This document shows, in pieces, positions 14,387 through 29,460 of a stretch of DNA of 64,000 nucleotides. The translations under genes were made by a program, and so were the position numbers. Under the pieces are notes generated by a model. It was not told the origin of the DNA. It saw only the letters and a list, made by a program, of their open reading frames with translations, and did no database searches. Source of the DNA: Nitrospirota bacterium. GTDB taxonomy: Bacteria; Nitrospirota; UBA9217. Positions within the stretch are counted from its first letter, which is position 1; each line of letters opens with the position of its first letter. The stretch spans positions 832,001 to 896,000 of the forward strand of contig CAWFSF010000006.1 in the NCBI GenBank assembly GCA_963818475.1, written 5' to 3'.

Positions 14387-15349
14387 TTGACTTCCCGGCC
14401 GCACCTTGATACTATATTATCAATGTTACGGTTTCTTGCGAAAAGACCTGCCCTCGGGCTTGAAATAACATCAACAGCACTGCGGCTTGCAGCAATTTCC
14501 GGGAAAGGGGCGACTGCCTCTGTTCTCGGGACGGCACGGGCGGTTGTTCCCGCCGGCATGGTGAGCGAAAGCTACGGTGCACCCAACCTTGACGCTCCCC
14601 AAGATCTTTCCCGCCTGTTACGTGACTGCCTGACCGGCCTGGGACGGCCCGACATCCGCCGTGTGGCACTCAGTTTGCCCGACAGCGTATTCCGCGTGCA
14701 GACGCTCGATTTTGACACGCTGCCGGGAAAGGCCCTGGACCGGGAACGGCTGATCCGCTGGCGCCTTGAAAAGACCGCAGCCTTCGATGTTGCGGACACG
14801 TCGCTCCGGTACGAGGTCCTCCGGGGACAGGACCGCGGCCTTACGGTGCTGGCCTGCGTTGCCAAACAGAGCGTGCTGGCCCAGTATGAGGCGATGCTCA
14901 CCATGCTCGGCCTCGAACCCTGGTCCATAGGCCTTTCATCTTTTTCTACCTTGAACTTTTACGCTGCGTACCTGACGAAACGGTCTCCGGTCGCCGTGCT
15001 GGCGCATATCACCGATGATGCTTTCGCCACGGTCATTCTCGAGAACGGCGGGGTGCGCTTCTACCGCTATAAAGAGATCAAACGGGGGGGCGTTGACGAG
15101 ATCCGCGCCCGGACCATCCGGGAGATCGAAGACTCCATTCATTTTTATTCGCACATGGACCGCATCCAGGCCGCGGAGATCGGGCATCTCTTTCTCACCG
15201 GCGATGCAGCAGCGGGCGACGGGCTTGCAGAGGGGCTCCATGACAGGATGGGAGTCACGGTCGAATTGCTGTCCCCGGCAGTCGTCCTGTCCCGGGGGCA
15301 GGCGGAGCCGGACCTTGCTGCGGCCCTCGGAGCCGGAGGTTCTTTGTGA
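14387..15349 (+). CDS. PilM/GspL-like actin-fold assembly protein
   Basis: LGLEIT, VALSLPD, LFLTG and AAALGA motifs; first gene of the cluster; the start may be ATG 14423. Confidence 0.75.
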   Translation: MTSRPHLDTILSMLRFLAKRPALGLEITSTALRLAAISGKGATASVLGTARAVVPAGMVSESYGAPNLDAPQDLSRLLRDCLTGLGRPDIRRVALSLPDSVFRVQTLDFDTLPGKALDRERLIRWRLEKTAAFDVADTSLRYEVLRGQDRGLTVLACVAKQSVLAQYEAMLTMLGLEPWSIGLSSFSTLNFYAAYLTKRSPVAVLAHITDDAFATVILENGGVRFYRYKEIKRGGVDEIRARTIREIEDSIHFYSHMDRIQAAEIGHLFLTGDAAAGDGLAEGLHDRMGVTVELLSPAVVLSRGQAEPDLAAALGAGGSL

Positions 15350-15882
15350 TCACGATCAATTTTGCAAGCATAAATTACCGGCTCGCGTCACGCTTGTCAG
15401 CAGGGCTGACTGTCGTTACCGTTTTGCTCACTGCGGTATTGGCGATCCAGATATGGGGTTTCACGGGATCGCGGGCCGACCGTATTGCTCTGGAGCAGAA
15501 ACTGAAACAGCAATCCGACCGGGAGGAGCAGATCCGGCCGGTCCTGCAGGAACGGGCACAGATCGTGAGCGACCTGACGGCCATGGCCGGCCTGATGGAG
15601 GCGCGGCGCTTCTCCTGGACCAGGCTGCTGACCAGTCTGGAAACGGCCTTTCCCACCGGCGTTGCTCTGACAAAACTGGAATTCGATCCCAAAGAGCGGA
15701 CCCTGGTGATCGAAGGCGTGGCACAGTCTCCGGAGGCGCTCCGCAATCTGATGGTCGGACTTGAAAAGTCGACCTACTTTAAGGACCCGCTGCTGAAGCA
15801 TCAATCCGTGGACAAGGGGATCATTTCGTTCAATGTCGCTTCCTTCTATACCGACCATATCGTGGCCCTTCGGGCTCGCTGA
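15346..15882 (+). CDS. PilN-domain protein
   Basis: INFAS N-terminal motif, TM, coiled coil, FSWTRLLTSLE, GVAQS. Confidence 0.8.
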   Translation: MITINFASINYRLASRLSAGLTVVTVLLTAVLAIQIWGFTGSRADRIALEQKLKQQSDREEQIRPVLQERAQIVSDLTAMAGLMEARRFSWTRLLTSLETAFPTGVALTKLEFDPKERTLVIEGVAQSPEALRNLMVGLEKSTYFKDPLLKHQSVDKGIISFNVASFYTDHIVALRAR

Positions 15883-16393
15883 GAACCGCACGCTCAGAAC
15901 CATCGCCCTGATCTGTGCCGTTCTCATCAGTGCGAACGTGCTGTTCTACCTGTTCGTGGCCGCGCCGTCAGCAGCGGGGCTTCGGGAGCTTGGGTCCCGG
16001 CATGCCGAGCTCCGGAAGCGGCATGCCGAAGCAATGCAGTTCCAGAAACAGAAGCAGGCCCTTGCCGGCATCAAGACCGGGATCCAGACGCAGAAGGACA
16101 TGCCGCTCCTCGTCAAGGACCTGGTGCAGACCGCGCGCGGGCTTAACCTCAGGGTTGGGCCGATCAACTACGATATTCCCAAACCCGGAAGCGGGGGGCT
16201 CGCCATGCTCACGTTCTCCTTTCCCGCCCAGGGCAGGTATCCCGATATCAAACGGTTCATTTACGAGACCGAGACCTCACCCCGGCTGGTGGGCATTCAG
16301 GATGTGGAACTGGATTCTGAAAAAGACGGGGTCAAGCTGCAAGTGAAGCTCGTGACCTATATCAGAAGCACCGAAGAAAAGGCGCAACCCTGA
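15833..16393 (+). CDS. PilO/GspM-like protein
   Basis: TM, coiled coil and GRYPDIKRFIYETE; position in the cluster; start uncertain. Confidence 0.75.
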   Translation: MSLPSIPTISWPFGLAENRTLRTIALICAVLISANVLFYLFVAAPSAAGLRELGSRHAELRKRHAEAMQFQKQKQALAGIKTGIQTQKDMPLLVKDLVQTARGLNLRVGPINYDIPKPGSGGLAMLTFSFPAQGRYPDIKRFIYETETSPRLVGIQDVELDSEKDGVKLQVKLVTYIRSTEEKAQP

Positions 16394-17007
16394 TGGCGTT
16401 CAGCAAACAGCAGCAAAAAATCGTTCTGAGCGTGCTGGTCGTGGTCCTTGTACTGGCGATCATCTACCGCTTCGTCACTGGCGAAAAGCCGAAGACCGCG
16501 CCGCTTACCTACCCGCGCGGGGCGGTCGCGACCGCGCCAGTCCGGCAGGGGCTCCCGTCCCCAGCGGCATCTTCGGACCCGCTCACTGTTTTTTTTGCAC
16601 GCCAACACGAGCCCTTTCCCGGTGTCGGTCGCGATTTGTTCAGGATGCAAAATCCCGCGCCCAAACCAACAAAGCCGGCACCGGCCGTTCCTGCTGCTCC
16701 GGTTCCGCCGCCCGTGCCGGAGAAGTCGCCGGAGGAGATCGCAGCAGAGTTTGCCAGGGCGGACCTTTCGAAGTTCCGCTTCCTGGGATACCTGACCGAC
16801 AGGGACCGGTCCCTGTTCCTGTCGAAGGACGGGGAAACGTTCATCGTGAAAAGCGGCGACCGGGTCCTCAAAAACTATACGATCAAGGATGCAGGCAAGG
16901 ATTACGTGATCCTGCTCGATACGGTCACGAATGTCGAGGTGCGTATCGAACTCTCGGGAAGCGGACCTGAACCGGCCGCGCCGCCCCAGCCGCAGAGATT
17001 CAGATGA
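16393..17007 (+). CDS. PilP/GspC-like protein
   Basis: TM, RDLF motif, Pro-rich linker, FRFLGYL...FIVKSGD beta domain. Confidence 0.65.
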   Translation: MAFSKQQQKIVLSVLVVVLVLAIIYRFVTGEKPKTAPLTYPRGAVATAPVRQGLPSPAASSDPLTVFFARQHEPFPGVGRDLFRMQNPAPKPTKPAPAVPAAPVPPPVPEKSPEEIAAEFARADLSKFRFLGYLTDRDRSLFLSKDGETFIVKSGDRVLKNYTIKDAGKDYVILLDTVTNVEVRIELSGSGPEPAAPPQPQRFR

Positions 17008-19383
17008 GGAGATGGATGATGAAAAAGATCGTGCTATTGCTCATGGCCGGCGTCCTGCCGGCGCTCATCGCCGGCTGCGCCGGTTCCCGGGCGTACCAGC
17101 GGGGCGAGACCTATTCCCACCGCGGAGAATGGGACCTGGCGGTCAAGGAATACCGCGAGGCCAACAAGCAGGCGCCCCAGGATATTGAGTACCGCTCATC
17201 ACTGATGCGCGCGGAGGAAACGGCGGCCAACCAGCATTATCAAAAGGCCCGCTCATTCGTCAAGGAGCGCAAACTCGACCAGGCCATCGTGGAGCTGCAG
17301 CAGGCGCTGTTCCTGAATCCGTCGAACGCGGCGATCCAGGGCGCACTCAAGTCGGTGCTCGACATCAAGCAGGCCGAGGAGCATTACCGGGCGGCGCTGA
17401 CGTTTCAGGAGCTGTCAAGACTGAACGACGCCATCACGGAACTGGGCCAAGCCGTCGAACTTGATCCGGAGAACGCCAAATACCATGACGCCCTGGACAA
17501 ACTGCAGAAGAAGAAGACCGAGATCGAGCCTGATGACGCCCTGAACCTGGCATCGGACAAGCCGATCACGCTGAATTTCAAAAATACGAACATCAAGGAG
17601 GTCTTCGAGCTCTTGGCGAAGCTCTCCGGGATCAATATCATGTTCGACGAAGAGGTCAAGGCCCAGCCCATCACCGTCTTTGTCAAGGATGTTTCGTTCC
17701 AGTATGCGTTGAACCTGCTGCTCTCGACGAACAAGCTTTTCATGAAAAAGATCAGCGCCGACACGATCATCATTATCCCCAAGAACAAGTCCAAGTCCGA
17801 CCAGTACCAGGACCTGATGGTGAAGACCTATTACCTCAACTATGCGAAGTCCAAGGAGATCGTGAACCTCCTGCGGTCCATGCTCGATGTCAAAAAGGTG
17901 TACGTCAACGAGATCCTGAACTCCATCACGATCCGCGATACACCCGAGAAGATCAAGCTGGTTGAAAAAATGATCGCAGCCAACGATCTGAAGGAAGGCG
18001 AGGTCATTCTCGACGTCGAGATCCTCGAGATCTCGCGGAGTAACACCCTGAAGTACGGCTGGAATTTCAGTCCCGGGCTTTCGGTCTCCGGAACGATCCA
18101 GAAAACGGATCCGTCCACAGGCGCGGCCGTGACCGACACGGGGATCACCCTGGCGGATTTGCGGAGCTCGGAAAAAAACGGTCTTTTCCTGAGCCTGCCG
18201 GGCATCGTGGTGAATCTGATCAAGCAGGACTCCGATGCCCAGGTCCTGGCCAATCCCCGTGTTCGCGTGCTGAACAACAAGCCGGCCAAGTTCCATATCG
18301 GCGACAAGATACCGATACAAACGTCGGTTGTGCAGGCAGCGGTGGCAGGCCAGACGACCTCGAACTTCGAGTATAAGGACGTGGGCATCAAGCTGAACAT
18401 CGAGCCGACGATCCACCTCAACAGCACGGTGACGCTCAAACTGGGCCTCGAGATCAGCACGCTTGGCGATGCCCTCGACTTCGGCAACGGCCAGAAACAG
18501 TACAAGTTCGGTACGCGCAACACGGACACGATCATCAACCTTCGGGACGGCGAAACGGTGATCATCGGCGGGCTGATCAAGGACGAGGAGCGCCGGGGCA
18601 GCATCAAGATCCCGCTGCTCGGCGATATCCCGATCCTGGGCAAGCTCTTCTCGTCGTCCGATGACGGCACGATCAAGACCGACATCCTCATGTCCATTAC
18701 CCCCAACATCGTGCGGAGCATGGAGATCCCGGACAAGGAGATGCAGAATTTCTGGTCAGGGACGGAGGAGGCATTCGATATCAAGCCGCTCTTCGTGACC
18801 ACGGCAAGCAAGAGCACGCGCGCCCCTGAAAAGGCCGCTTGATAAGACGGCGGTCCTCGACGCCCTGGCAAAACGGGAGCCTGCGGGTGCGGTCGAAGCG
18901 CCCGGGACGGGGACGGCTGCCCCGATCGAACCGCCCGCGGGGCAAAAGCCGGCCCTGCCGCCGACGGCCGGATCGGTACTGGAAATGAAACCCGCCGACG
19001 TGAGCGTGGCCGTAGGACAGGACATGAGATTTGAGCTCTCGGTGGATAACGTGCGCGATCTTTACGGCGCTATTGTCACGCTCGGCTATGATCCGAAGAT
19101 CACGGAATTCAAGACCGCCAGCGAAGGGGCGCTGCTGAAAAAGGACGGCCAGCAGACCTCTTTCCTGTTCTCGAACAACGTCAAGGCGGGGACGGTGGAC
19201 ATCTATATGACGCGGATCGGCGATGTGGGCGGGATAAGCGGTGCGGGAAGCCTGGGCACGCTCGTATTCCAGAGCAAGGCCGGCGGTTCCGGAGAAATAA
19301 GCCTTCGGAGCGTCAAACTGACGAATTCCAGCCGGGAGCCGATCAAGGCGGAGCTCAAGGGAGCGAAGATCACCGTCAAGTAG
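17004..19383 (+). CDS. TPR-containing secretin (GspD-like) with C-terminal cohesin-like domain (one apparent frameshift)
   Basis: Lipobox, TPRs, LANPRVRV, YKDVGIKL and IPLLGDIPILGKLF. A shift near 18833 joins the 18985-19383 cohesin-like ORF (YDP, SGAGSLGTLVF). Confidence 0.85.
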
Positions 19384-19398
19384 CGGGTGTTCCTGATC

Positions 19399-19875
19399 AT
19401 GCAAAAAGGACTTACCCTCATAGAGCTGATGGTCGTGATCGCTATCCTCGGGATCCTCACCGCTGCGGCAATGCCCCTTTCGCGCATGACCGTGAAGCGG
19501 GTCCGGGAGATGGAACTGCGGAGCGACCTCAGGATCCTGCGCAATGCCATCGATGCGTTCAAGAAGGACTGCATCGAAAAAAAGATCGCTTCGGATTATT
19601 GCAAGGCTGAGCGGGACAACTATCCCGAGTCGCTGGAACTGCTGGTCGAACCGGTGAAGCTGGCAGGCGCCGTGGACAGAACAAAAAAATATCTGCGCAG
19701 GATACCGCGCGACCCCATGATGCCGCCTGAGCAGGACGGCAACGCGCACAACTGGGGGCTCCGTGCCTACGGCGATGAGCCTGACTCGACCCAATGGGGC
19801 GGCGACAATGTGTTCGACGTCTATTCCCGGAGCGAGGCGATCGCCCTGGACGGGACCAGGTACAATACGTGGTGA
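19399..19875 (+). CDS. Type II secretion pseudopilin (GspG-like)
   Basis: KG|LTLIEL prepilin motif, YPESLELLV, YLRRIPRDPM, GTRYNTW. Confidence 0.9.
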   Translation: MQKGLTLIELMVVIAILGILTAAAMPLSRMTVKRVREMELRSDLRILRNAIDAFKKDCIEKKIASDYCKAERDNYPESLELLVEPVKLAGAVDRTKKYLRRIPRDPMMPPEQDGNAHNWGLRAYGDEPDSTQWGGDNVFDVYSRSEAIALDGTRYNTW

Positions 19876-19904
19876 AGGCGGGACGGAGATAAACCGTAAA
19901 ATGT

Positions 19905-20018
19905 TTTGCCACGAAGACACGAAGACACGAAGACACAAAGTGCAGCCTTAATCTAATCATTAAAGCGATTTATTCATCAGTTTTGTTGTTCTTCGTGACT
20001 TCGAGCCTTCGTGGCAAA
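19905..20018. repeat. Inverted arms of 8-nt tandem repeats (CACGAAGA/TCTTCGTG)
   Basis: TTTGCCACGAAGACACGAAGACACGAAGACAC pairs with CTTCGTGACTTCGAGCCTTCGTGGCAAA. Confidence 0.7.
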
Positions 20019-20053
20019 TTTTGGTTCCGGATTGTCCGGTCAGGAACAAGCAA

Positions 20054-20467
20054 ATGGATACTATGAACAATAAAAAAAAGCTCCTCAAACAGGCAGGATT
20101 CACGCTGATCGAGCTTATGATCGTGCTGTCGATCATGGGGATTCTGATCACCATTGCCGAGCCCAGCTTCAAGCAGTCCATTATCAGGGCGAGGGAAGCG
20201 GTGCTGAAGGAGGACCTGTTCCAGATCCGTGACGCCATTGACCAGTATTATGCTGACAATAATAAATATCCCGAGCAACTTACCGACTTGATCAACCAGC
20301 AGGACCGTACTCGTAGCTATCTGCGCGAGATCCCCAAAGATCCGTTTACCAGGGCTGCGGACTGGATCACCGTATCACCGGAAGGCGGCGAAGAGGCCGG
20401 CGTCTTCGATGTTCACAGCGCCAGCCCGCTCATTGCGGTTGATGGCACCGCGTATAATACCTGGTAG
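20054..20467 (+). CDS. Type II secretion pseudopilin (GspG/OxpG-like)
   Basis: AG|FTLIEL, EAVLKEDL, AIDQYYAD, YLREIPKDPFT, GTAYNTW. Confidence 0.9.
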   Translation: MDTMNNKKKLLKQAGFTLIELMIVLSIMGILITIAEPSFKQSIIRAREAVLKEDLFQIRDAIDQYYADNNKYPEQLTDLINQQDRTRSYLREIPKDPFTRAADWITVSPEGGEEAGVFDVHSASPLIAVDGTAYNTW

Positions 20468-20723
20468 GTTTCCCAGCCGTCCGTACCCGCTCCAGGTTCG
20501 TGCGGCAGCAGGGCGGCCAACTCGTGCAGAATTCTCACTGTTTGAAGCAGGGTTCTATTAACCTCCATTGCAACTCGATTTTTCTTTTCATTAATCCTAA
20601 AAATCCTGACATCGCCCACTCCGGCTTGACCCTCCGCCAAAAGCTCAAAGCGTGACCTCAGCATCCAAAATTACCAGCCGTCAGCTGATTCGCGTCACAA
20701 TCGTTTTTTTGAGCGTCATACAG

Positions 20724-20771
20724 CACCTGTCAATTCTGACAGGTGACAGGTGACACCTTCTCCTATATAAT
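20724..20771 (+). promoter_or_regulatory. lux-box-like site 1 plus sigma70 promoter
   Basis: ACCTGTCAATTCTGACAGGT (20725-20744), GTGACA, 17 bp, TATAAT (20766-20771). Confidence 0.8.
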
Positions 20772-21048
20772 TCACGTGCATTGCATCAGCGACATTCTTC
20801 TCTTGGCGCAGTCGATCGTCCGGCTGTGAAAAATATGAATTCGCATTTGCACCGCGACGCTCTTTGACATTCAGCCTAGCTGTCCAACCTGCGAGATTCT
20901 GTTTGCCCTATGCGGCAAATATGGTAAGATACTGCCGTCTGCTTCGTTGACCGATCAATTGCAGATATTGGCTGGTTTGTGCGTCGCCGGCATTCCCTCA
21001 GTGTGGACAAAGCGACCGGGGTAATAATTATCTTGTGGGAGAACTATC

Positions 21049-22923
21049 GTGACGAAAATCGTCAGCAGTTTCACTATTTTTCTTGCCCTGGCCTTCTCCA
21101 TAACCTTCCCCCCCATTACCCTGGCGCAGCCTGATGAAGACAAAAAGTTCCTTCTCATGTATTTTAAGGAAGAGGAGCTCGTCGTGGAGTCGCCGACGCG
21201 CGGCAAAAAACCCCTCACCCAGGTTGCGGAGAACATTACCGTCGTTACCGCGGATGACATCAAACTCATGAACGCCCACACGGTCGCGGACGTGCTGAAT
21301 GGCGTGACCGGTGTGCAGGTGTTCATGACCGGCGGGCCGGGCAGTTCTGCACTGGCATCCATCCAAGGCTCGGATAACAGGCATGTTGCCATATTCATGG
21401 ATGGAATTCCTATGAACAACCTTAGCGACAATGTCACGGAGATCGGTGCTCTACCGGTCCAGAATATAGAAAAGATAGAGATCATCAAGGGACCGGCGTC
21501 TTCTGCCTGGGGCTCCTCCCTCGGCGGTGTAGTGAATATTATTACGAAGTCGGGGAGTGATGATGGATCCCGCAGCACGGTCTCTGCGAGCTACGGCGGA
21601 AAAAGCATGGCTGATATTAGAATGGAAACCCTTGGCAAAGAGGAACGATTCGGTTACTACGTCACCGCAGGCAGGCTTCAAACCGACGGTTTCAGGTCTC
21701 ATAATGATTTTTCCGGGAACAATGTTTACACAAAACTGACGTATGGCTTATCGGATAAAACGACCATCGGTTTTACTGTTGGGTATGACAACCTTTCGAG
21801 GGGTATTGCAGAATATCCTGACCCTGCTTACGATCTGTTTATTAATAATAAAATAGAGACACTGAAATCGTCTTTGATGGTGAAATCTTTGTTGAGTGAC
21901 GACGTAGAAGCTCAGCTCTCATTTTGGAAGTTGAAACAGAATAATGACATTTATTATTATAAGTTGAGTTCCGGAGTAGAGCTTTCAAAATACTACTATA
22001 AAGATAGCGGTTACGGCTCGAGTGCGAAACTCTCCTGGAAACACGATTTACATAATATCGTTCTGGGTGTGGACTTAGATTCTAAAAAACTTGAGTCTAA
22101 TACTATAGCTGACAATGATGGTTTAAAAAAATGGGCTTATTATATCAACGATACTGTTGCGATCGATCGCTTGTCACTTACGCCTGGCATCCGTTATGAT
22201 AAAACAAGCACGAACGGCGATTTCACCAGCCCGAGCCTTGGCGTTACTTATAAAATAACCGACTCATCTTTGCTCCGGGCATATGTTGCGCGGGGCTTCA
22301 GCATTCCGCCGCTTGGTTATACTTATGGAGATAACGATTTTTATATATCAAATCCAGACTTAAAAATGGAAAGAGTTTGGTCCTATGAGCTAGGAGCTGA
22401 ATCTACAGCGTTGCAATATGTCTGGATGAAGCTGTCCCTATTTCGGCACGATATCAGCGGCGGCATAAGACCAGAACCCGTATCAACGACTTCATCTACA
22501 CGGGTCAATGATGGAAGAGAGAGAAGGCAGGGAATGGAAATAGAGATGAAGTCACTGCCTCTCTACCATACTTTAATGGTTGCTGCAGTAACATTTATAA
22601 ACGCGAAAGATCTGGATACGGGTGAAACTATCGTAAACGTTCCTCAGCGAACATATGATATAGGCCTCCAGTTTGAGAATAATTCATTCAAGGCGCTGCT
22701 CAAGGGACATTATATTTATTGGAACGCTGATCCTACGTATAACGGGAAATACGATTCGATAATCGTGGATCTTCATGTTGCGAAGAATCTTTATGCGCAG
22801 CAAGATCAAGCGCTCGAAGCTTATTTTGATATCCATAATATATTCAACGGATCTCAATATCTTGTGGATGTATATACAAACCCGGCACGGTGGTTTGAAG
22901 CCGGCGTACGCTATACGTTCTAA
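21049..22923 (+). CDS. TonB-dependent receptor
   Basis: Signal peptide, plug motifs (IEKIEIIKGPASSAWGSSLGGVVNIITK), NPDLKME, C-terminal GVRYTF. Confidence 0.93.
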   Translation: MTKIVSSFTIFLALAFSITFPPITLAQPDEDKKFLLMYFKEEELVVESPTRGKKPLTQVAENITVVTADDIKLMNAHTVADVLNGVTGVQVFMTGGPGSSALASIQGSDNRHVAIFMDGIPMNNLSDNVTEIGALPVQNIEKIEIIKGPASSAWGSSLGGVVNIITKSGSDDGSRSTVSASYGGKSMADIRMETLGKEERFGYYVTAGRLQTDGFRSHNDFSGNNVYTKLTYGLSDKTTIGFTVGYDNLSRGIAEYPDPAYDLFINNKIETLKSSLMVKSLLSDDVEAQLSFWKLKQNNDIYYYKLSSGVELSKYYYKDSGYGSSAKLSWKHDLHNIVLGVDLDSKKLESNTIADNDGLKKWAYYINDTVAIDRLSLTPGIRYDKTSTNGDFTSPSLGVTYKITDSSLLRAYVARGFSIPPLGYTYGDNDFYISNPDLKMERVWSYELGAESTALQYVWMKLSLFRHDISGGIRPEPVSTTSSTRVNDGRERRQGMEIEMKSLPLYHTLMVAAVTFINAKDLDTGETIVNVPQRTYDIGLQFENNSFKALLKGHYIYWNADPTYNGKYDSIIVDLHVAKNLYAQQDQALEAYFDIHNIFNGSQYLVDVYTNPARWFEAGVRYTF

Positions 22924-22975
22924 TAACTTGAGCACTATTCGCTTTAAATTAAAAAAGGGGGGGAGGTGAGTGGGG

Positions 22976-23071
22976 ATGAAAAATCGTATTATCGTTTTAA
23001 AAAAAGGAGTTGATAAAAAAGGCGTTGTTTCCGGCGGCTGTTGTGCCATGGCTTTTATTCCGATCCGTTAG
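22976..23071 (+). CDS. Geopeptide-like RiPP precursor, 31 aa (MKNRIIVLKKGVDKKGVVSGGCCAMAFIPIR)
   Basis: Hand-translated; below the ORF-track size cutoff. GGAGGTGA RBS; basic IIVLKKGV leader and CC pair, directly upstream of a radical SAM gene. Confidence 0.85.
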   Translation: MKNRIIVLKKGVDKKGVVSGGCCAMAFIPIR

Positions 23072-23086
23072 TTAACGTACGTTTTA

Positions 23087-23120
23087 GAGAGGGAGGGCTG
23101 CTGGCTCTCCCTCGCATTTT
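23087..23120 (+). terminator. Stem-loop between precursor and maturase
   Basis: GAGGGAGGGC-TGCTG-GCTCTCCCTC followed by ATTTT. Confidence 0.55.
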
Positions 23121-23168
23121 ATTCTTATAAAAGCGACAGATTTTGATCTACCTCATGATGAAAAGACC

Positions 23169-24455
23169 ATGCCATTATCAAAATATACTAAAATATACCC
23201 CTCCCCAGATGGACCTGATTCCGTAATTCTTTATTCTACGAAAAATGCATCGGCACTGCTCGTCCCTTCCGGATCGATTGAAGACATCCAGAAAAACAGC
23301 TTGTCCGACGAGGAAAAAGAAACCCTCACGGATCACGGTTGCCTGGTAAAGGATGCCTCGGAAGAAAGACGTGAGATGCTCACCTTTATCCGGGAAGTGA
23401 ATTCTCTCGATAAAACGCTGAACTATATTGTTGTCTTGAACCTGGACTGCAATCTCGCATGCACATACTGTTTCGAGGGCGAAAGAAAGGGCAAGCTCTA
23501 CCTGTCCGATGAAACAGCCGACCAGTTCGTAGATTTCGTGAAGCGCAGCAGTGTCGGAAAAGAAGAGATCAATATCACCTTTTACGGCGGCGAGCCGCTC
23601 TTAAGCATGGAGCGCATTGCAGGGATCTCTGAAAAACTTCGTTTGTTCTCGGAACAGAAGGGACTTGCTTACGGCTTCTCGCTCGTTACCAACGGGACCC
23701 TGCTCACACCCAGGAATGTAAAGCGCTTAACGCCTCTCGGCTTGAAAAGCGCGAAAGTAACGCTCGATGGGCCGGAATATGTCCATGACATGTTCAGGCC
23801 ATTCAAATCCGGCGAAGGGTCCTTCAATATCATCATGCGGAATATCAAAGACGTCTGCGACATGATACGCATCCAGATCGGGGGTAATTATACGCAGGAA
23901 CATTTTCAGAAGTTTCCCCGGCTTCTTGACGTTCTCGCGGAAAAAGGCCTAACTCCCGACAAGATATATATGGTCAAATTCGACCCCGTGGTCAATGAAA
24001 GCGCAGAGTTTGCGCCGCGTGATTTTCATGACGGGTGCGCGTCGATCAATGAACCCTGGATCAGCGAAGCGAGCCTGTTCCTGCGGGAAGAGATATTGAA
24101 GCGGGGATACAAAACGCCGAAGATCATGCCGTCTCCCTGCGCCATTGAGCGGGAAAGCAGCCTGGTGGTCAACTACGACGGTGCACTGTACAAATGCCCG
24201 GGGCTGATCGGCAGGGCTGACTGCTGCGTGGGCGATCTCAAGAGCGGCTTGATCGACTACGGCAGCTCTCATGATCTCGACGCCTGGAAAAACGAGGAAT
24301 GCCTTGCCTGCGAATATCTCCCGCTCTGTTTCGGCGGATGCAAGTACATGAAGCTGCTGCGCGACGGCACCCTGCGCGGCATCAATTGTCAAAAAGAGTA
24401 TCTTGACCGGACCCTCGCCGGACTGGTGGCACAGGATATTAAATACGATCTATGA
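23169..24455 (+). CDS. Radical SAM/SPASM peptide maturase (geopeptide maturase-like)
   Basis: CNLACTYC, YGGEP, TNGTLL, TLDG; SPASM cysteines C...YKCPG...CLACEYLPLCFGGC...C. Confidence 0.92.
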   Translation: MPLSKYTKIYPSPDGPDSVILYSTKNASALLVPSGSIEDIQKNSLSDEEKETLTDHGCLVKDASEERREMLTFIREVNSLDKTLNYIVVLNLDCNLACTYCFEGERKGKLYLSDETADQFVDFVKRSSVGKEEINITFYGGEPLLSMERIAGISEKLRLFSEQKGLAYGFSLVTNGTLLTPRNVKRLTPLGLKSAKVTLDGPEYVHDMFRPFKSGEGSFNIIMRNIKDVCDMIRIQIGGNYTQEHFQKFPRLLDVLAEKGLTPDKIYMVKFDPVVNESAEFAPRDFHDGCASINEPWISEASLFLREEILKRGYKTPKIMPSPCAIERESSLVVNYDGALYKCPGLIGRADCCVGDLKSGLIDYGSSHDLDAWKNEECLACEYLPLCFGGCKYMKLLRDGTLRGINCQKEYLDRTLAGLVAQDIKYDL

Positions 24456-24572
24456 CCCGTTTCAATATCTGTGAAATCTGCGTAATCTGCGGATAATACA
24501 TTGACTTGAGCAGTTACTAAAAAAATCTTTTCACTAATCAGCAGGCTTTCGGATAGATAACACAGGCATTCC

Positions 24573-25485
24573 TTGATCAAATTGAATTCATACTTCGCCC
24601 GCAACCTTCTCCTCATCTTTTCCCTGTTCGCAGCGGTTCCGGTGCTCGGACCCGCGTCCGTGAACGCATGCGATGTTGTCGTAGTGAAAAGCGCCGACCT
24701 GAAACCCTACCGCGACGCGCTTCGAGGGTTTCGGGACGCGAGTTCCTGCACCGTGAGCGAAGTGGAATTGAACGACGATCGCGATCTTGAAAGAATACGT
24801 CAGAAAACGGCCCGATGTCGTGCTGGCGATCGGTACAACGGCCTTTAAGAAGCTCAGGCTGTTGAACGATGTTCCCGTTGTGTACGTTATGGCTGTCCTC
24901 TCCGAGGCGGACCGCGCACTTCCTCCGAATATTTCCGGCGTGAGCATGGAGATACCGCCTGCGGCCTATTTTGCCGCCATGAAACAGGTCTTTCCCTCGG
25001 CAAAACAGGTCGGTCTTTTGTACGATCCGCGCAACAGCGAGACCTTTGTCGAAGAAGCGTCACGCGACGCACGCGCCGCCGGTCTCGAGCTGTCGGACAG
25101 GAAGCTCCCCGATCCCGCAGGCCTGGCTGCTGCTCTCGGCAGCATGCGGGACACTATCGACATCCTGTGGATCTTGCCAGATCCGACCGTGGTAACGCCT
25201 GAAACGATCGATTACCTGCTGCGTTTTTCCATTCAAAACAATATTCCGCTCTTCGCTTTTTCAAAAAAATACGTCGAAATGGGCGCGATCGCTTCGCTCG
25301 ATGTTGACCCCTACGACATGGGCGCGCAGGCCGCGGACATAGCAAAGGGGATCGCCGCGGGGGGCAAAGGGTCGGTACGCGTATACGCGCGGAAAACCCG
25401 GCTTTCGATCAACGGGAAGGCCGCGAACAAAATGGGCGTCAAGATCGACAGCGAAACGGCGCGCAGGGTGGACCATGCCGATTAG
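24573..25485 (+). CDS. Periplasmic ABC-type substrate-binding-like sensor partner (one apparent frameshift)
   Basis: Signal peptide and PYRDALRGF, then after a shift near 24805 PDVVLAIG, GLLYDP, LWILPDPTV and DPYDMGAQAA. Confidence 0.8.
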
Positions 25486-26927
25486 GAGCTTTCGGAACAG
25501 GATCCGGGAACAATTCGGACTGAAGGTGTTCACCGCCTTCTTCGTCGTCATTGTTGTGCTCCTGACAACCTATACCGGCATCGGCGCTTTCCGTGAATGG
25601 CACAAGGCGAAGGACAAATTGAAGGAACAGGGGGAGATGCTTGCAGACCTGCTCTCACAGAATGTCCTCGTCGGGCTGTTCGCGGAGGACGAAACACTGC
25701 TCGAGGCGGCTGCGGCCGGAATGCTCGGTCTGAAAGACGTCACGTCGATCACGATCTATAACAGCGAGCTGAAGTTGCTCTATGCCGGTAAGCGGTCTTC
25801 GTCCGGGCAAAGCGCAACGCCCCTCCCTGGCGGACCGGTCCCCGGTCTTGGGGGTGTTTCCGGTCCCGACGTCGTCGAAACAGCGGACTCCTTTCAGTTC
25901 ACAAAACCCGTGTCGATCAGGTCGCGGTCCCGAGGCTGTCGAGTCCCTGTATTTCGACGTGCAGGGCACGGGGCGCAGCGGCCGGGTGATAGGATACGCG
26001 CAAGTCGTCCTGAGCAAGGACTCATTTCGCAAGGACATCGCATCGCTCGTGACGCGGAGAGCCGTAATGATGCTCCTGTTCATCGCTGCCGGCTGGGTCA
26101 TCATTTCTTTCGCAGTGAAGCAGGTCACGCGGCCGCTCCGGAACCTGACCGGGAAGGTGCGGTCGCTTGAATTGGGACTGCCCATCGAACCGGCTGTTGT
26201 GGAAACGGAGGATGAGATCGGGAAGCTCGCAGCGGCCTTCAACGCGATGGTTGAGGCGCGCGTCAGAGCGGAAAAATCCATGCGGGAGAGCGAGGAACGG
26301 GAACGGCACCTGATAGCGACCGACCTTCATGATTTCGTGGGACAGAACCTCGTGGCGTCGCAATACCAGCTCGGAGCATTGCGGAAGCTCATCTCCTCCC
26401 CTGAAGCGGCCGCACGCCTGGACGAGGCGCGCGAGCTGATCGCGCAGACCATCCAGTACACGCGGTCGCTCACCATCGAGCTCAGGTCTCCCGTGCTGGA
26501 GGAACTCGGCTTGCAATCGGCCATCGAATCGCTGGCCGAAAGTTATGAAACCACCCACGGGGTCCCTGTGCGGGTGGAGAATGACGGCTTGCCGATGGAG
26601 ATCAGCGACGAGACGGGCTATCTGCTCTTCCGGAGCGTGCGCGAGCTCCTGATGAACATCGTAAAGCACGCGAAGGCGACCGAAGCGAGGATCTCGGTGA
26701 CGAGGACGGGGGACAATGTCCGCATCGCGGTCAGGGACAACGGCATCGGGTTCATTGCAACGGCGGCGCCACAGCCCGGCCATAGCTTTGGTTTATTCAC
26801 CATCCGCGAGAGGCTACGAGGCCTTGGCGGGCATTGCGACGTCGAATCCGCGCCCGGCGCGGGGACAACGGTGGTCCTTACGGCGCCGCTCGTGAGATCC
26901 GGGGAACAGGGAAAGAGGACGCCATGA
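25475..26927 (+). CDS. HAMP HisKA_3 (NarX/UhpB-type) sensor kinase (one apparent frameshift)
   Basis: TM and periplasmic domain, shift near 25929, TM-HAMP (DEIGKLAAAFN), ERHLIATDLHDFVGQ, ELLMNIVKHA, DNGIG, FGLFTIRER. Confidence 0.88.
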
Positions 26928-27568
26928 TAAAGATACTTCTCGTTGACGACCACAAGATCGTGCGCGCCGGGCTCAGGGCGGTGATAGCCGGGCACCCGGA
27001 CATGACCGTTGTTGCCGAAGCGGGCGACGGCAGGACCGCCGTGGAACTCGCCGCCGAAGTGTCGCCGAACGTTATTATCATGGACATCTCCATGCCCGGT
27101 TTGAACGGAACGGAAGCGACCCGCAGGATACTGGAGGCGAACCCGGACGCCAGGATCATAGCGCTGTCGATGCATCTTGAACGGCGCATCGTGCTCCAGA
27201 TGCTGGGCGCCGGCGCAAAAGGATATTTATTGAAAGACGGCGCCGATGACGAGGTGATCGACGCCATTCTCGCTGTTACGCAGAATGCGACCTACCTGAG
27301 TCCGAGGATCAGCAACATGGTCTTGAGGGACTACGTCGAACGGGTCTCGAAAAATGAACTGTCCTCGATCTCCCTTCTGTCGTCGCGGGAGCGGGAAGTT
27401 CTGCAGCTTCTGGCCGAGGGGAAAAAGACAAAGGATATCGCCACGCTCCTTACGGTAAGCATAAAAACCGCAGAATTCTACCGCCAGCAGATCATGGAAA
27501 AACTGGACGTTCATACCATCGCCGAGCTTACGAAGCTGGCTATCCGCGAAGGCCTGACCTCGCTGTAA
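26924..27568 (+). CDS. NarL/FixJ-family response regulator
   Basis: ILLVDDH, MDISMP, GYLLK, LSSREREVLQLLAEG, IMEKL. Confidence 0.95.
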   Translation: MIKILLVDDHKIVRAGLRAVIAGHPDMTVVAEAGDGRTAVELAAEVSPNVIIMDISMPGLNGTEATRRILEANPDARIIALSMHLERRIVLQMLGAGAKGYLLKDGADDEVIDAILAVTQNATYLSPRISNMVLRDYVERVSKNELSSISLLSSREREVLQLLAEGKKTKDIATLLTVSIKTAEFYRQQIMEKLDVHTIAELTKLAIREGLTSL

Positions 27569-27682
27569 CATTTCCGCAGTATTCAAACTTCCTGATAGCC
27601 CTATCTGCCATACCTGCTTGTATGAAATCAGGCCCCTGCACGTCATAACCGGCTCAAAACCCAAAAAAGGACTCTCAAAAGG

Positions 27683-27730
27683 CACCTGTCAGTTCTGACA
27701 GGTGACAGCGAACAAAAAATCACTTACAAT
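27683..27730 (+). promoter_or_regulatory. lux-box-like site 2 plus sigma70 promoter
   Basis: ACCTGTCAGTTCTGACAGGT (27684-27703), GTGACA, 17 bp, TACAAT (27725-27730). Confidence 0.8.
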
Positions 27731-27856
27731 CCCGCAACTACTGGTTGATGCAGTTCTGGTCTTATGCAGGTTCCGTTTCAACCATGATTCTTATCAACCC
27801 ACGCTGTTTTGTGCGATTACCTGCGACAATGTGCGTAAAAAAAGGAGGATACTATT

Positions 27857-28864
27857 ATGGACATCGAATTTCACTATTACATCACCGCTCTTATAGCACT
27901 TCGCGCCGGATTTACTAAGGAAGAGGCCTATATACTTGCCTATGCTTCGCAGCATGTTGACGATAATACCGACGTCTTTAAGATCAATCAGGGTACCGCC
28001 GAGGCATACAGCAATTACATAAGTCAAACGTCAAACATACTAAAAGCGGAAAAGGAGCTAATGCAAATCTATCCCGTTTTCCACTTTATGCCGGGGAACA
28101 GGGACGAGATTGAATGTGAAGGGGCCATGCGATGTGACGGAAAACTTCATGTTCTCAATACGATACCGGACAATAGCAATGCCTGCGCCGTCCTGCAGGC
28201 GGCTTTCGACGACGGCAATCTCTACCGCATAGGGATAGCAACGCATATGTACGCAGATACGTTCGCGCATCAGAACTTTGTCGGCTACTACGAATCGTTC
28301 AATGCCATGAAAGGCGTTCTCGGTAAAGCTATTCCCGATGTGGGGCATGCGGACGCCCAACACAACCCCGATCTGCCGGGGCTCATCTGGGATGATAAAC
28401 GCCTTATCAACAAGAACAAGGATGTCTGCAACAGGGACCGTTTCCTCAAAGCGGCAGAACGCATCTTTGAGCAGTACCGGCGACATAAAGATCCCCACTG
28501 CTCGCCTGAAGTCATTACAGCGGACAAGACCTCGCTTATGGCCACTATTACTTATGCGATCGGTGAAACCGGCGATCATGCGGTCAACGATCAGGAGCGA
28601 AAGAATCGCATAGCCCGGTATAGAAAAGCCATTGGTGAAGATTTTAAGGACTATGACGAAAAGGAGTGGCTTGGCGAGGCAATTGAACGAAAAGGCCTCC
28701 TTGCCCCGATCAATCCGTGGCCCTCGTATGCATGGAAAGCCGATCACACGGACAGCCACTGGTTCAAGTTCCAGGAAGCGGTCAAGAACCATCAATGGTT
28801 CGCCAAGGACAATGTCCTGAGCCCCATCACCAAAAATCTTCAGCTTGATCGATTTTATAATTGA
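27857..28864 (+). CDS. Conserved hypothetical protein (DUF6765-like; His/Asp motifs reminiscent of zinc phospholipase C/S1-P1 fold)
   Basis: MDIEFHYY, ASQHVDD, FHFMPG, GIATHMYADTFAHQNF, GHADA; AGGAGG RBS. Confidence 0.6.
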   Translation: MDIEFHYYITALIALRAGFTKEEAYILAYASQHVDDNTDVFKINQGTAEAYSNYISQTSNILKAEKELMQIYPVFHFMPGNRDEIECEGAMRCDGKLHVLNTIPDNSNACAVLQAAFDDGNLYRIGIATHMYADTFAHQNFVGYYESFNAMKGVLGKAIPDVGHADAQHNPDLPGLIWDDKRLINKNKDVCNRDRFLKAAERIFEQYRRHKDPHCSPEVITADKTSLMATITYAIGETGDHAVNDQERKNRIARYRKAIGEDFKDYDEKEWLGEAIERKGLLAPINPWPSYAWKADHTDSHWFKFQEAVKNHQWFAKDNVLSPITKNLQLDRFYN

Positions 28865-29460
28865 GGACTACCTTACGGATGGAGTGTTCCCTTTCCATGA
28901 TACATGAATACGAGATCAACGGTGTGACCCTGCGGACCGGGGATATCATCTGCACGCATGACGGGGGCGCCCCGATTCTGGAGGGCCAGCTCTGGCATTT
29001 TGTCGGGAACCTGATCCCCGGCGATGTCGACCATGTCGCTCTTTATCTTGGACCGGGCGGTCGCTGCATAGAGGCAGGGCCGAAAGGGGTCAACATATTC
29101 GAAATGAAGAGCAGGACCTGGGATTCCGTGAATATGCGGGACCAGCGCGGCCCGGTTGTGGATACGTTCTACGGCGTCGCCTGCCCGGTAGAGGGCAGAG
29201 GTCTTGCGGAAGAAAAAAAAGCCGAGATCCGGGAGAGCGTTGCCCGGTACTGCATTGCGCAGGCAGGAAAGCCGTACAATTTGAATTTTATGAATTCGGA
29301 AACAGAAGATACGTTTTATTGCAGTCAATTAGCGTGTCTGGCGTATCTGAAAAGCGGCATCATTTTGAACACGGACCTGGGGGTGCCTCTGGTTCCCGGG
29401 ACGCACAGCATCATCTTTCCGCAGGAGATATGGAGCGGGTGTGTAAATAAAAAGGCATGA
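28861..29460 (+). CDS. Permuted papain-like NlpC/P60 (YiiX/YebB-like) enzyme
   Basis: GDII...DHVALYLG...GKPYN...FYCSQL, with His preceding Cys; start uncertain. Confidence 0.8.
   Translation: MRTTLRMECSLSMIHEYEINGVTLRTGDIICTHDGGAPILEGQLWHFVGNLIPGDVDHVALYLGPGGRCIEAGPKGVNIFEMKSRTWDSVNMRDQRGPVVDTFYGVACPVEGRGLAEEKKAEIRESVARYCIAQAGKPYNLNFMNSETEDTFYCSQLACLAYLKSGIILNTDLGVPLVPGTHSIIFPQEIWSGCVNKKA

Follow-up and report, generated by a model that had tools for sequence, protein, structure and literature searches.

Geopeptides and their radical S-adenosylmethionine (SAM) maturases exist as family names in NCBIfam (models TIGR04229 and TIGR04280, respectively), where they were defined in silico. Here we describe a 31-codon open reading frame (ORF) and the maturase gene following it, both located in 64,000 nt of contig CAWFSF010000006.1 (positions 832,001 to 896,000 of the forward strand; assembly GCA_963818475.1) of a Nitrospirota bacterium, a stretch called the window below. 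Judged by its sequence, the peptide appears to be a new member of this known but uncharacterised family, one which escapes the family's own model, and it is encoded in a cassette together with a TonB-dependent receptor, a periplasmic binding protein and a sensor kinase. The best explanation of the cassette as a whole, to which we assign a probability of about 0.5, would be a thioether-type RiPP (a peptide made by the ribosome and modified after translation) that is re-imported and sensed. The first-pass annotation of this DNA regarded the chemistry and function of geopeptides as uncharacterised, with which our search agrees: no paper on geopeptides or on the cassette described here was found, subscription journals and supplements lying outside the search, and passages of PMC10288494 and PMC3531188 hold no mention of a geopeptide system.

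The locus resembles the TIGR04229/TIGR04280 geopeptides in that its maturase passes TIGR04280 and its peptide carries both the Cys-Cys pair and the I-x-V-L-[KD]-x-G leader and is encoded immediately 5' of the maturase gene. It differs from the two Geobacter-type peptides passing TIGR04229 by a basic leader (net charge +5), theirs being acidic, and by a hydrophobic tail, AMAFIPIR, in place of their Ser/Gly-rich ones. With the CteB/SCIFF and PapB systems it shares the architecture of a radical SAM and a SPASM domain with, as predicted, an RRE-like one in front; CteB is its best solved match, and the modelled substrate cysteines lie near the SPASM cysteines, as discussed below. However, the window maturase scores 91.6 on the SCIFF and 135.5 on the PapB model (cut-offs 425 and 340, respectively), its substrate carries two adjacent cysteines in place of six spaced cysteines or of CX3D repeats, and the gene context is another one. 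The methanobactin operon, which comprises a precursor, the TonB-dependent MbnT and the periplasmic MbnE, is similar in that a RiPP precursor comes with a TonB-dependent receptor of its own and with a binding protein of the periplasm, whereas in the window maturation is assigned to a radical SAM/SPASM enzyme and not to MbnBC, and the PF04392 binding protein is coupled to a histidine kinase and not to a sigma/anti-sigma pair. In LuxP-LuxQ and TorT-TorS, as here, an orphan periplasmic binding protein stands beside a periplasmic-sensor kinase without a permease; the window module differs from both in including a TonB-dependent receptor and in its presumed ligand, the cassette's own peptide.

The precursor and maturase genes comprise the following features:

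22962..22966, forward strand: ribosome-binding site GGAGG, 9 nt 5' of the precursor ATG, read from the sequence
22976..23071, forward strand: precursor peptide of 31 aa, assigned by ORF translation, homology and our own profile (E 4.7e-12)
23169..24455, forward strand: geopeptide-type radical SAM/SPASM maturase of 428 aa, assigned by TIGR04280, cysteine motifs and structure matches

The precursor ORF runs from the ATG at 22976 to the TAG at 23069-23071, with 97 nt between it and the start of the maturase gene, and its translation is MKNRIIVLKKGVDKKGVVSGGCCAMAFIPIR. Initiation at a GTG (22970) would lengthen the peptide by two residues; since this codon lies only 3 nt past GGAGG, the strong ribosome-binding site noted in the first-pass annotation, and since orthologous precursors begin with M-K/Q/E-x-R-I, the start was taken as the ATG. 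The peptide is laid out as a leader (M1-G21) that includes the predicted recognition strand (I5-G11), the Cys22-Cys23 pair and a tail (A24-R31). It has no NCBIfam and no Pfam match. The first-pass annotation had proposed a search with the geopeptide hidden Markov model, and this gave no support: TIGR04229, a model of 22 positions with a curated cut-off of 30 bits, did not match the peptide at E values up to 10, nor did a six-frame search of the window's own genome find the ORF with it, though a wider profile shows clear homology. Applied to 40 precursors located beside TIGR04280 maturases, TIGR04229 passed two, matched 22 below the threshold and missed the other 16. The two that passed, from a delta proteobacterium (L107) and a Geobacter sp. 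(L098), both have acidic leaders. The model is narrower than the family of homologous precursors, and with only two of 40 maturase neighbours passing it, such precursors will usually be absent from annotations.

The wider profile rests on 69 distinct precursors, all from other genomes; the three of the window's own genome and six long Lys-rich ones were left out. It was searched against every stop-to-stop frame of 20 aa or more in the window's own genome (122,916 frames). The window ORF ranked second (48.1 bits, E 4.7e-12), behind the precursor of a second, paralogous cassette (56.4 bits, E 1.2e-14), and the next frame reached only 12.7 bits (E 0.55); the peptide of a third cassette, at 12.2 bits, was at noise level. 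On the strength of this result, the window ORF truly belongs to the precursor family.

Related loci support the same assignment. Of 401 genomes sampled from the phylum, 43 have a match passing the TIGR04280 cut-off; of 14 control genomes, none does. One genome per species was scanned, and the best 80 of 309 stretches encoding relatives (L040-L119) were used for comparison; the closest, by their record titles, come from Nitrospirota/Thermodesulfovibrionia (about 55-71% identity), the more distant from Desulfobacterota orders and Geobacteraceae (43-53%). A pattern search found an ORF with the leader and Cys-Cys pair upstream of the maturase at 69 of the 80 loci, so that the first-pass annotation's expectation of a homologous small ORF next to orthologous maturases was borne out. 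The pattern overlooked Cys-Cys precursors at L048 and L110, and at L088, where the precursor sits 3' of the maturase; a profile search recovered single-Cys variants, ..ILVLDEG..K[YF]CMVP[IL]FR.., at L079 and L092; L093 yielded no convincing precursor, and the remaining five loci end at a contig edge with no DNA upstream of the maturase. The window's own genome has three maturase loci, namely that of the window, another that is intact, and one whose maturase is spread over three reading frames, and all three have a small upstream ORF with the same leader and Cys-Cys pair. These comparisons show that the window ORF is homologous to the small ORFs next to the maturase orthologues of Geobacteraceae, Nitrospirota and Desulfobacterota.

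A rival explanation would be a chance frame in the spacer between receptor and maturase genes, the peptide being short and without an NCBIfam or Pfam match. This explanation has a practically negligible probability and was rejected in view of the homologues upstream of maturases at 69 of 80 loci and the own-genome profile E value; the retention of the ORF at the same position across phyla, its good ribosome-binding site and the complex model described below also speak against it. The small ORF and the next gene therefore almost certainly form a real precursor/maturase pair, as predicted in the first-pass annotation.

Anatomy of the family was derived from 78 distinct precursors, selected by a pattern requiring Cys-Cys, which makes the invariance of this pair partly circular. 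The family pattern begins with the I-x-V-L-[KD]-x-G leader, whose Gly is conserved in at least 90% of a 46-row alignment; a stretch of 8-15 residues then leads to Cys-Cys, after which 7-13 residues make up the tail, and the window peptide shows all of this. The tail is hypervariable and follows only loosely the consensus x-G-A-[FLY]-x-P-[LFIY]-R (Gly at +2 in 43 precursors, Ala at +3 in 37, Pro at +6 in 42 and Arg at +8 in 36), from which the hydrophobic AMAFIPIR departs only by Met at +2. Two features stressed in the first-pass annotation turned out not to be general. A cleavage site at GG|CC lacks comparative support and was rejected: Gly-Gly immediately precedes Cys-Cys in 2 of the 78 precursors and Gly occupies position -1 in seven, G-P-x-x-x-C-C being commoner (17), and no C39 peptidase/ATP-binding cassette (ABC) exporter was found among the conserved gene clusters of the 80 loci or among the window ORFs scanned. 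The leader of the window peptide is basic (+5), as claimed, but the family does not share this, since leader net charge is positive in 35 precursors, negative in 38 and zero in five; basic leaders are a trait of the window's clade and not of the family.

Some Nitrospirota precursors carry, between the leader motif and Cys-Cys, an insert of 20-40 residues built of (A/T)KKK repeats (L015, L017, L018, L021, L025 and L031, recurring in L052, L054, L056, L051, L104 and L101), which resembles histone H1 tails and gives a weak H1-like NCBIfam match. Tandem precursors before one maturase also occur, as two near-identical copies at L013/L072 and three at L073.

The maturase ORF is intact, and the check with the geopeptide-maturase model was positive: TIGR04280 scores 585 bits (cut-off 400), with residues 1-426 aligned to positions 1-427 of the 428-position profile. 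The radical SAM motif CX3CX2C is formed by C94, C98 and C101, and the SPASM set, CX13GX4C...CX2CX5CX3C...C, is complete as C324-G338-C343, C378/C381/C387/C391 and C407; all ten cysteines are invariant in 15 aligned maturases. The radical SAM identity given in the first-pass annotation is accordingly retained. By sequence, the closest solved structure is that of CteB, the SCIFF thioether maturase (5wgg; phmmer E 7e-20), and an AlphaFold2 model of the window enzyme (mean pLDDT 82.9) has CteB as its best Foldseek match as well (E 4.9e-18, TM 0.67), followed by anSME, TigE, SuiB and ChlB. The NCBIfam models next after TIGR04280 are TIGR04463, CefB, Clo7bot, PapB, CcpM, QhpD and SCIFF maturase, all matched far below their cut-offs; RumMC, like SCIFF, PapB and CcpM, is also matched below its cut-off. 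These next-best models describe maturases of cysteine-rich peptides. Because the nearest families by NCBIfam and by structure act on such peptides, thioether formation seems the most likely reaction, and we give about even odds that the enzyme converts the two precursor cysteines to thioethers of the sacti- or ranthipeptide type, a guess already made by analogy in the first-pass annotation. A further SPASM-type radical SAM gene of the same genome, located about 17 kb past the second cassette (L008, C6:264978-265970), scores 108 bits on TIGR04280, well under the cut-off.

Recognition of the precursor was approached by modelling. The N-terminal domain of the maturase (about residues 1-85) is predicted to be RRE-like: in the model, strands at residues 7-11, 18-23 and 28-33 are followed by helices at 35-41, 47-55 and 63-71, the order of elements found in RRE domains. 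A model of the maturase-precursor complex scored 0.83 in the median run, the best of three controls reaching 0.00; of solved complexes, 116 of 157 attain the mark applied to this score, and of mismatched pairs 2 of 215, counts that are approximate here, own alignments having been used. The runs had at least 67% of contacts in common, with a partner pLDDT of at least 62. In the model, precursor residues I5-G11 run alongside maturase residues 27-32, that is the third strand, while residues 20-24 (G-G-C-C-A) contact maturase residues 317-331, 343-344 and 390-394. This supports a leader that would bind the RRE-like domain and so place Cys22-Cys23 beside the SPASM cysteines.

Between the two genes lies one non-coding element:

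23089..23123, forward strand: terminator-like hairpin with T-rich tail, by folding against shuffles and conservation across loci

Its stem (23089-23113) has 11 pairs and a 3-nt loop and is followed by GCATTTTATT. For the 70-nt stretch containing it the predicted folding energy is -24.6 kcal/mol (z = -3.87), a value that none of 200 shuffles attains. The hairpin pointed out in the first-pass annotation is therefore real as a predicted structure, and it is also conserved: among 75 distinct precursor-maturase spacers, 65 have z < -2 (mononucleotide shuffles), 69 fold at -15 kcal/mol or lower, and nearly all have a GC-rich stem and a T run straight after the precursor stop. It is probably a partial terminator, raising the precursor transcript over that of the enzyme.

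The rest of the cassette, whose conserved receptor, binding protein and kinase were overlooked in the first-pass annotation and provide the main functional clue, consists of:

21049..22923, forward strand: TonB-dependent receptor of 624 aa, first gene of the cassette (PF07715 and PF00593)
24573..25485, forward strand: PF04392 (ABC_sub_bind) periplasmic binding protein, in two frames (Pfam)
25475..26927, forward strand: sensor histidine kinase, in two frames (homology to intact orthologues)
26924..27568, forward strand: response regulator of 214 aa with receiver and LuxR/GerE helix-turn-helix domains, its start overlapping the kinase stop

The receptor has a plug and a 22-strand barrel and is BtuB-sized; its best NCBIfam match is TonB-B12, at 141 bits and under the cut-off. 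Clustering of the genes at the 80 loci gave the maturase in 78, the receptor in 72, the PF04392 protein in 64 and a kinase-like protein in 63. Of the eight loci without a receptor, contig ends truncate seven, and L088 alone has the space for one; in a set of 32 loci the receptor gene lies 5' of the peptide in all. Gene order varies by lineage. In the window's clade it is receptor, peptide, maturase, binding protein, kinase and LuxR-type regulator; in other Nitrospirota and in Desulfobacterota the kinase and binding protein are divergent from receptor-peptide-maturase; in Geobacteraceae the receptor is on the opposite strand. A half-size MFS_1 protein (189 aa) is encoded directly 3' of the maturase at 14 of the 80 loci (e.g. 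L060:8302-8868) and is a candidate exporter, absent from the window's clade. All remaining clusters occur at four loci or fewer each, and none of the 80 loci's conserved clusters is a protease, ABC exporter, permease or ATPase.

In the window's own genome (7 contigs, 91% completeness), homologues of the binding protein and of the kinase sensor part were found at the three cassettes only. All three cassettes are frameshifted. In the window, the binding protein is read in frames 24573-24848 and 24787-25485, with a shift near 24790 relative to intact 306-aa orthologues, and the kinase in frames 25475-26170 and 25782-26927, with a shift near 25935; intact kinase orthologues have 615 aa and the domain order sCache_4-HAMP-PAS-HisKA_3-HATPase. 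The second cassette is shifted in the receptor (C6:244602-246474), and the third in the receptor and, twice, in the maturase (C2:280694-284021). These shifts could be either indel errors of long reads or a sign that the system is decaying.

Receptor, binding protein and kinase also occur without the peptide. Homologues of the binding protein (E <= 1e-25) were found in 153 of the 401 genomes, and among the 40 genomes with a best match of E <= 1e-50, a threshold set after inspection of the data, 37 also encode the maturase. At three sampled loci of the phylum with weak homologues in genomes devoid of the maturase (L120, L121 and L122), the kinase gene follows directly downstream in all three and the receptor gene lies directly upstream in two, these two holding receptor, binding protein and kinase(-regulator) modules; at the third the binding protein precedes an sCache_4 hybrid kinase and the receptor is absent. 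Just upstream of the L122 locus there is a Cas9-like gene (1002 aa). Because it is found in maturase-less genomes too, the receptor/binding protein/kinase set appears to be a module in its own right, to which the geopeptide cassette would contribute the precursor gene and that of its maturase. As ligands of the three solved PF04392 proteins, Table 1 of PMC10443332 gives L-Trp, L-Tyr or L-Phe, and geopeptide tails are rich in residues of this kind.

For the cassette as a whole we propose the following course. The hairpin would halt part of the transcripts, leaving the precursor in excess of the enzyme, and the maturase would join the sulfurs of both cysteines to carbon atoms of residues close by, through thioethers of the sacti- or ranthipeptide type. 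After removal of the leader, a core of about 10 residues would exit the cell and be carried back across the outer membrane by the cassette's TonB-dependent receptor; in the periplasm the PF04392 protein would bind it and signal to the sCache_4 kinase, which in turn would drive the LuxR-type regulator. That the cassette forms such a self-contained loop of making, releasing, importing and sensing is drawn from gene order only, and we put its chances slightly below even. More tentatively still, geopeptide cassettes might be peptide autoinducer circuits of double-membraned anaerobes, in which the core re-enters only via its own receptor. If so, the three cassettes of this genome would represent three private channels, and the peptide-free module of other Nitrospirota a general device for "TonB-gated sensing". 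The conserved link to this module seems the most worthwhile lead, as it offers a concrete functional guess for geopeptides, namely a re-imported and sensed peptide, and a guess at the ligand class for a widespread and unstudied sensing module.

Several observations weigh against the proposal of a re-imported thioether peptide. With one-Cys variants at two loci, a pair of thioethers cannot hold for the whole family. Neither an exporter nor a leader protease is conserved across the 80 loci, the half-MFS protein being present at 14 only, and no operator shared by the receptor genes was found upstream of them at 18 loci, where no 8-mer occurs in more than six and the top shared ones are AT-rich. 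In the window copy the loop may be broken by the binding-protein and kinase frameshifts. Regarding leader recognition, Pfam gives no RRE or PqqD match in the maturase, and the good score of the complex model may reflect likeness to the solved leader-bound CteB and SuiB. Beyond homology, the whole interpretation is built on gene order and models.

The main rival reading makes the product a metal-carrying peptide, a metallophore similar to methanobactin, in which the Cys-Cys pair or a derivative of it would bind a metal and whose loaded form would be imported by the receptor, with the binding protein and kinase reporting the supply of metal. A conserved Cys-Cys pair in the core and a BtuB-sized receptor would suit this role, and the receptor and periplasmic binding protein near a RiPP precursor recall the methanobactin operon. 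We nevertheless consider it unlikely, as the cassette has no conserved inner-membrane permease or ATPase, a kinase and not a transporter comes after the binding protein, the nearest enzyme families consume thiols through thioethers, and the three solved PF04392 proteins bind aromatic amino acids and not metals (PMC10443332, Table 1).

Improbable to a further degree is an antimicrobial sacti- or ranthipeptide, to which receptor, binding protein and kinase would be unrelated or would serve self-protection. No conserved immunity, ABC-export or C39 genes were found, the receptor is adjacent at 72 of the 80 loci over three gene arrangements, and none of the three cassettes in this genome lacks a receptor, a binding protein and a kinase of its own; these points count for more than the hydrophobic tail and the fact that many radical SAM/SPASM thioether peptides are bacteriocins. 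The lack of an exporter among the conserved clusters would suit an intracellular cofactor precursor that is never exported, such as PqqA or MftA, and PqqE and MftC are likewise SPASM enzymes with RRE partners. However, no further tailoring enzymes are conserved, the tail is hypervariable and an outer-membrane importer is linked to the cassette, so that we regard this role as very improbable. The re-imported and sensed peptide thus stays our preferred reading.

Neighbouring genes of the window are not conserved beside cassettes elsewhere. Upstream of the cassette (14387-20467) there are genes for PilM/PilN/PilO, a TPR-secretin, a cohesin-domain protein and two prepilin-type proteins, and 3' of the response regulator (27857-29460) those for a DUF6765 protein of 335 aa and for one resembling Peptidase_C92. 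An Rfam scan of 19500-28000 gave nothing relevant, with one weak plastid match (E 0.45), which indicates that no riboswitch, such as a cobalamin one, precedes the receptor gene. One promoter-like site was recorded there on weak evidence:

20743..20771, forward strand: promoter-like site GTGACA-17-TATAAT (11/12), upstream of the receptor gene

Twelve promoter-like sites were found against 6.2 expected in shuffles, and this one overlaps a 22-bp palindrome (20724-20745), CACCTGTCA-N4-TGACAGGTG, which is repeated genome-wide in 29 copies with up to 3 mismatches. The window holds six of them (20724-20745, 27683, 35286, 42064, 44113 and 51020), and two flank the cassette. With so many copies in the genome and none near the other two cassettes, the palindrome was rejected as a cassette operator; it could be an element similar to repetitive extragenic palindromes or a site of a global regulator.

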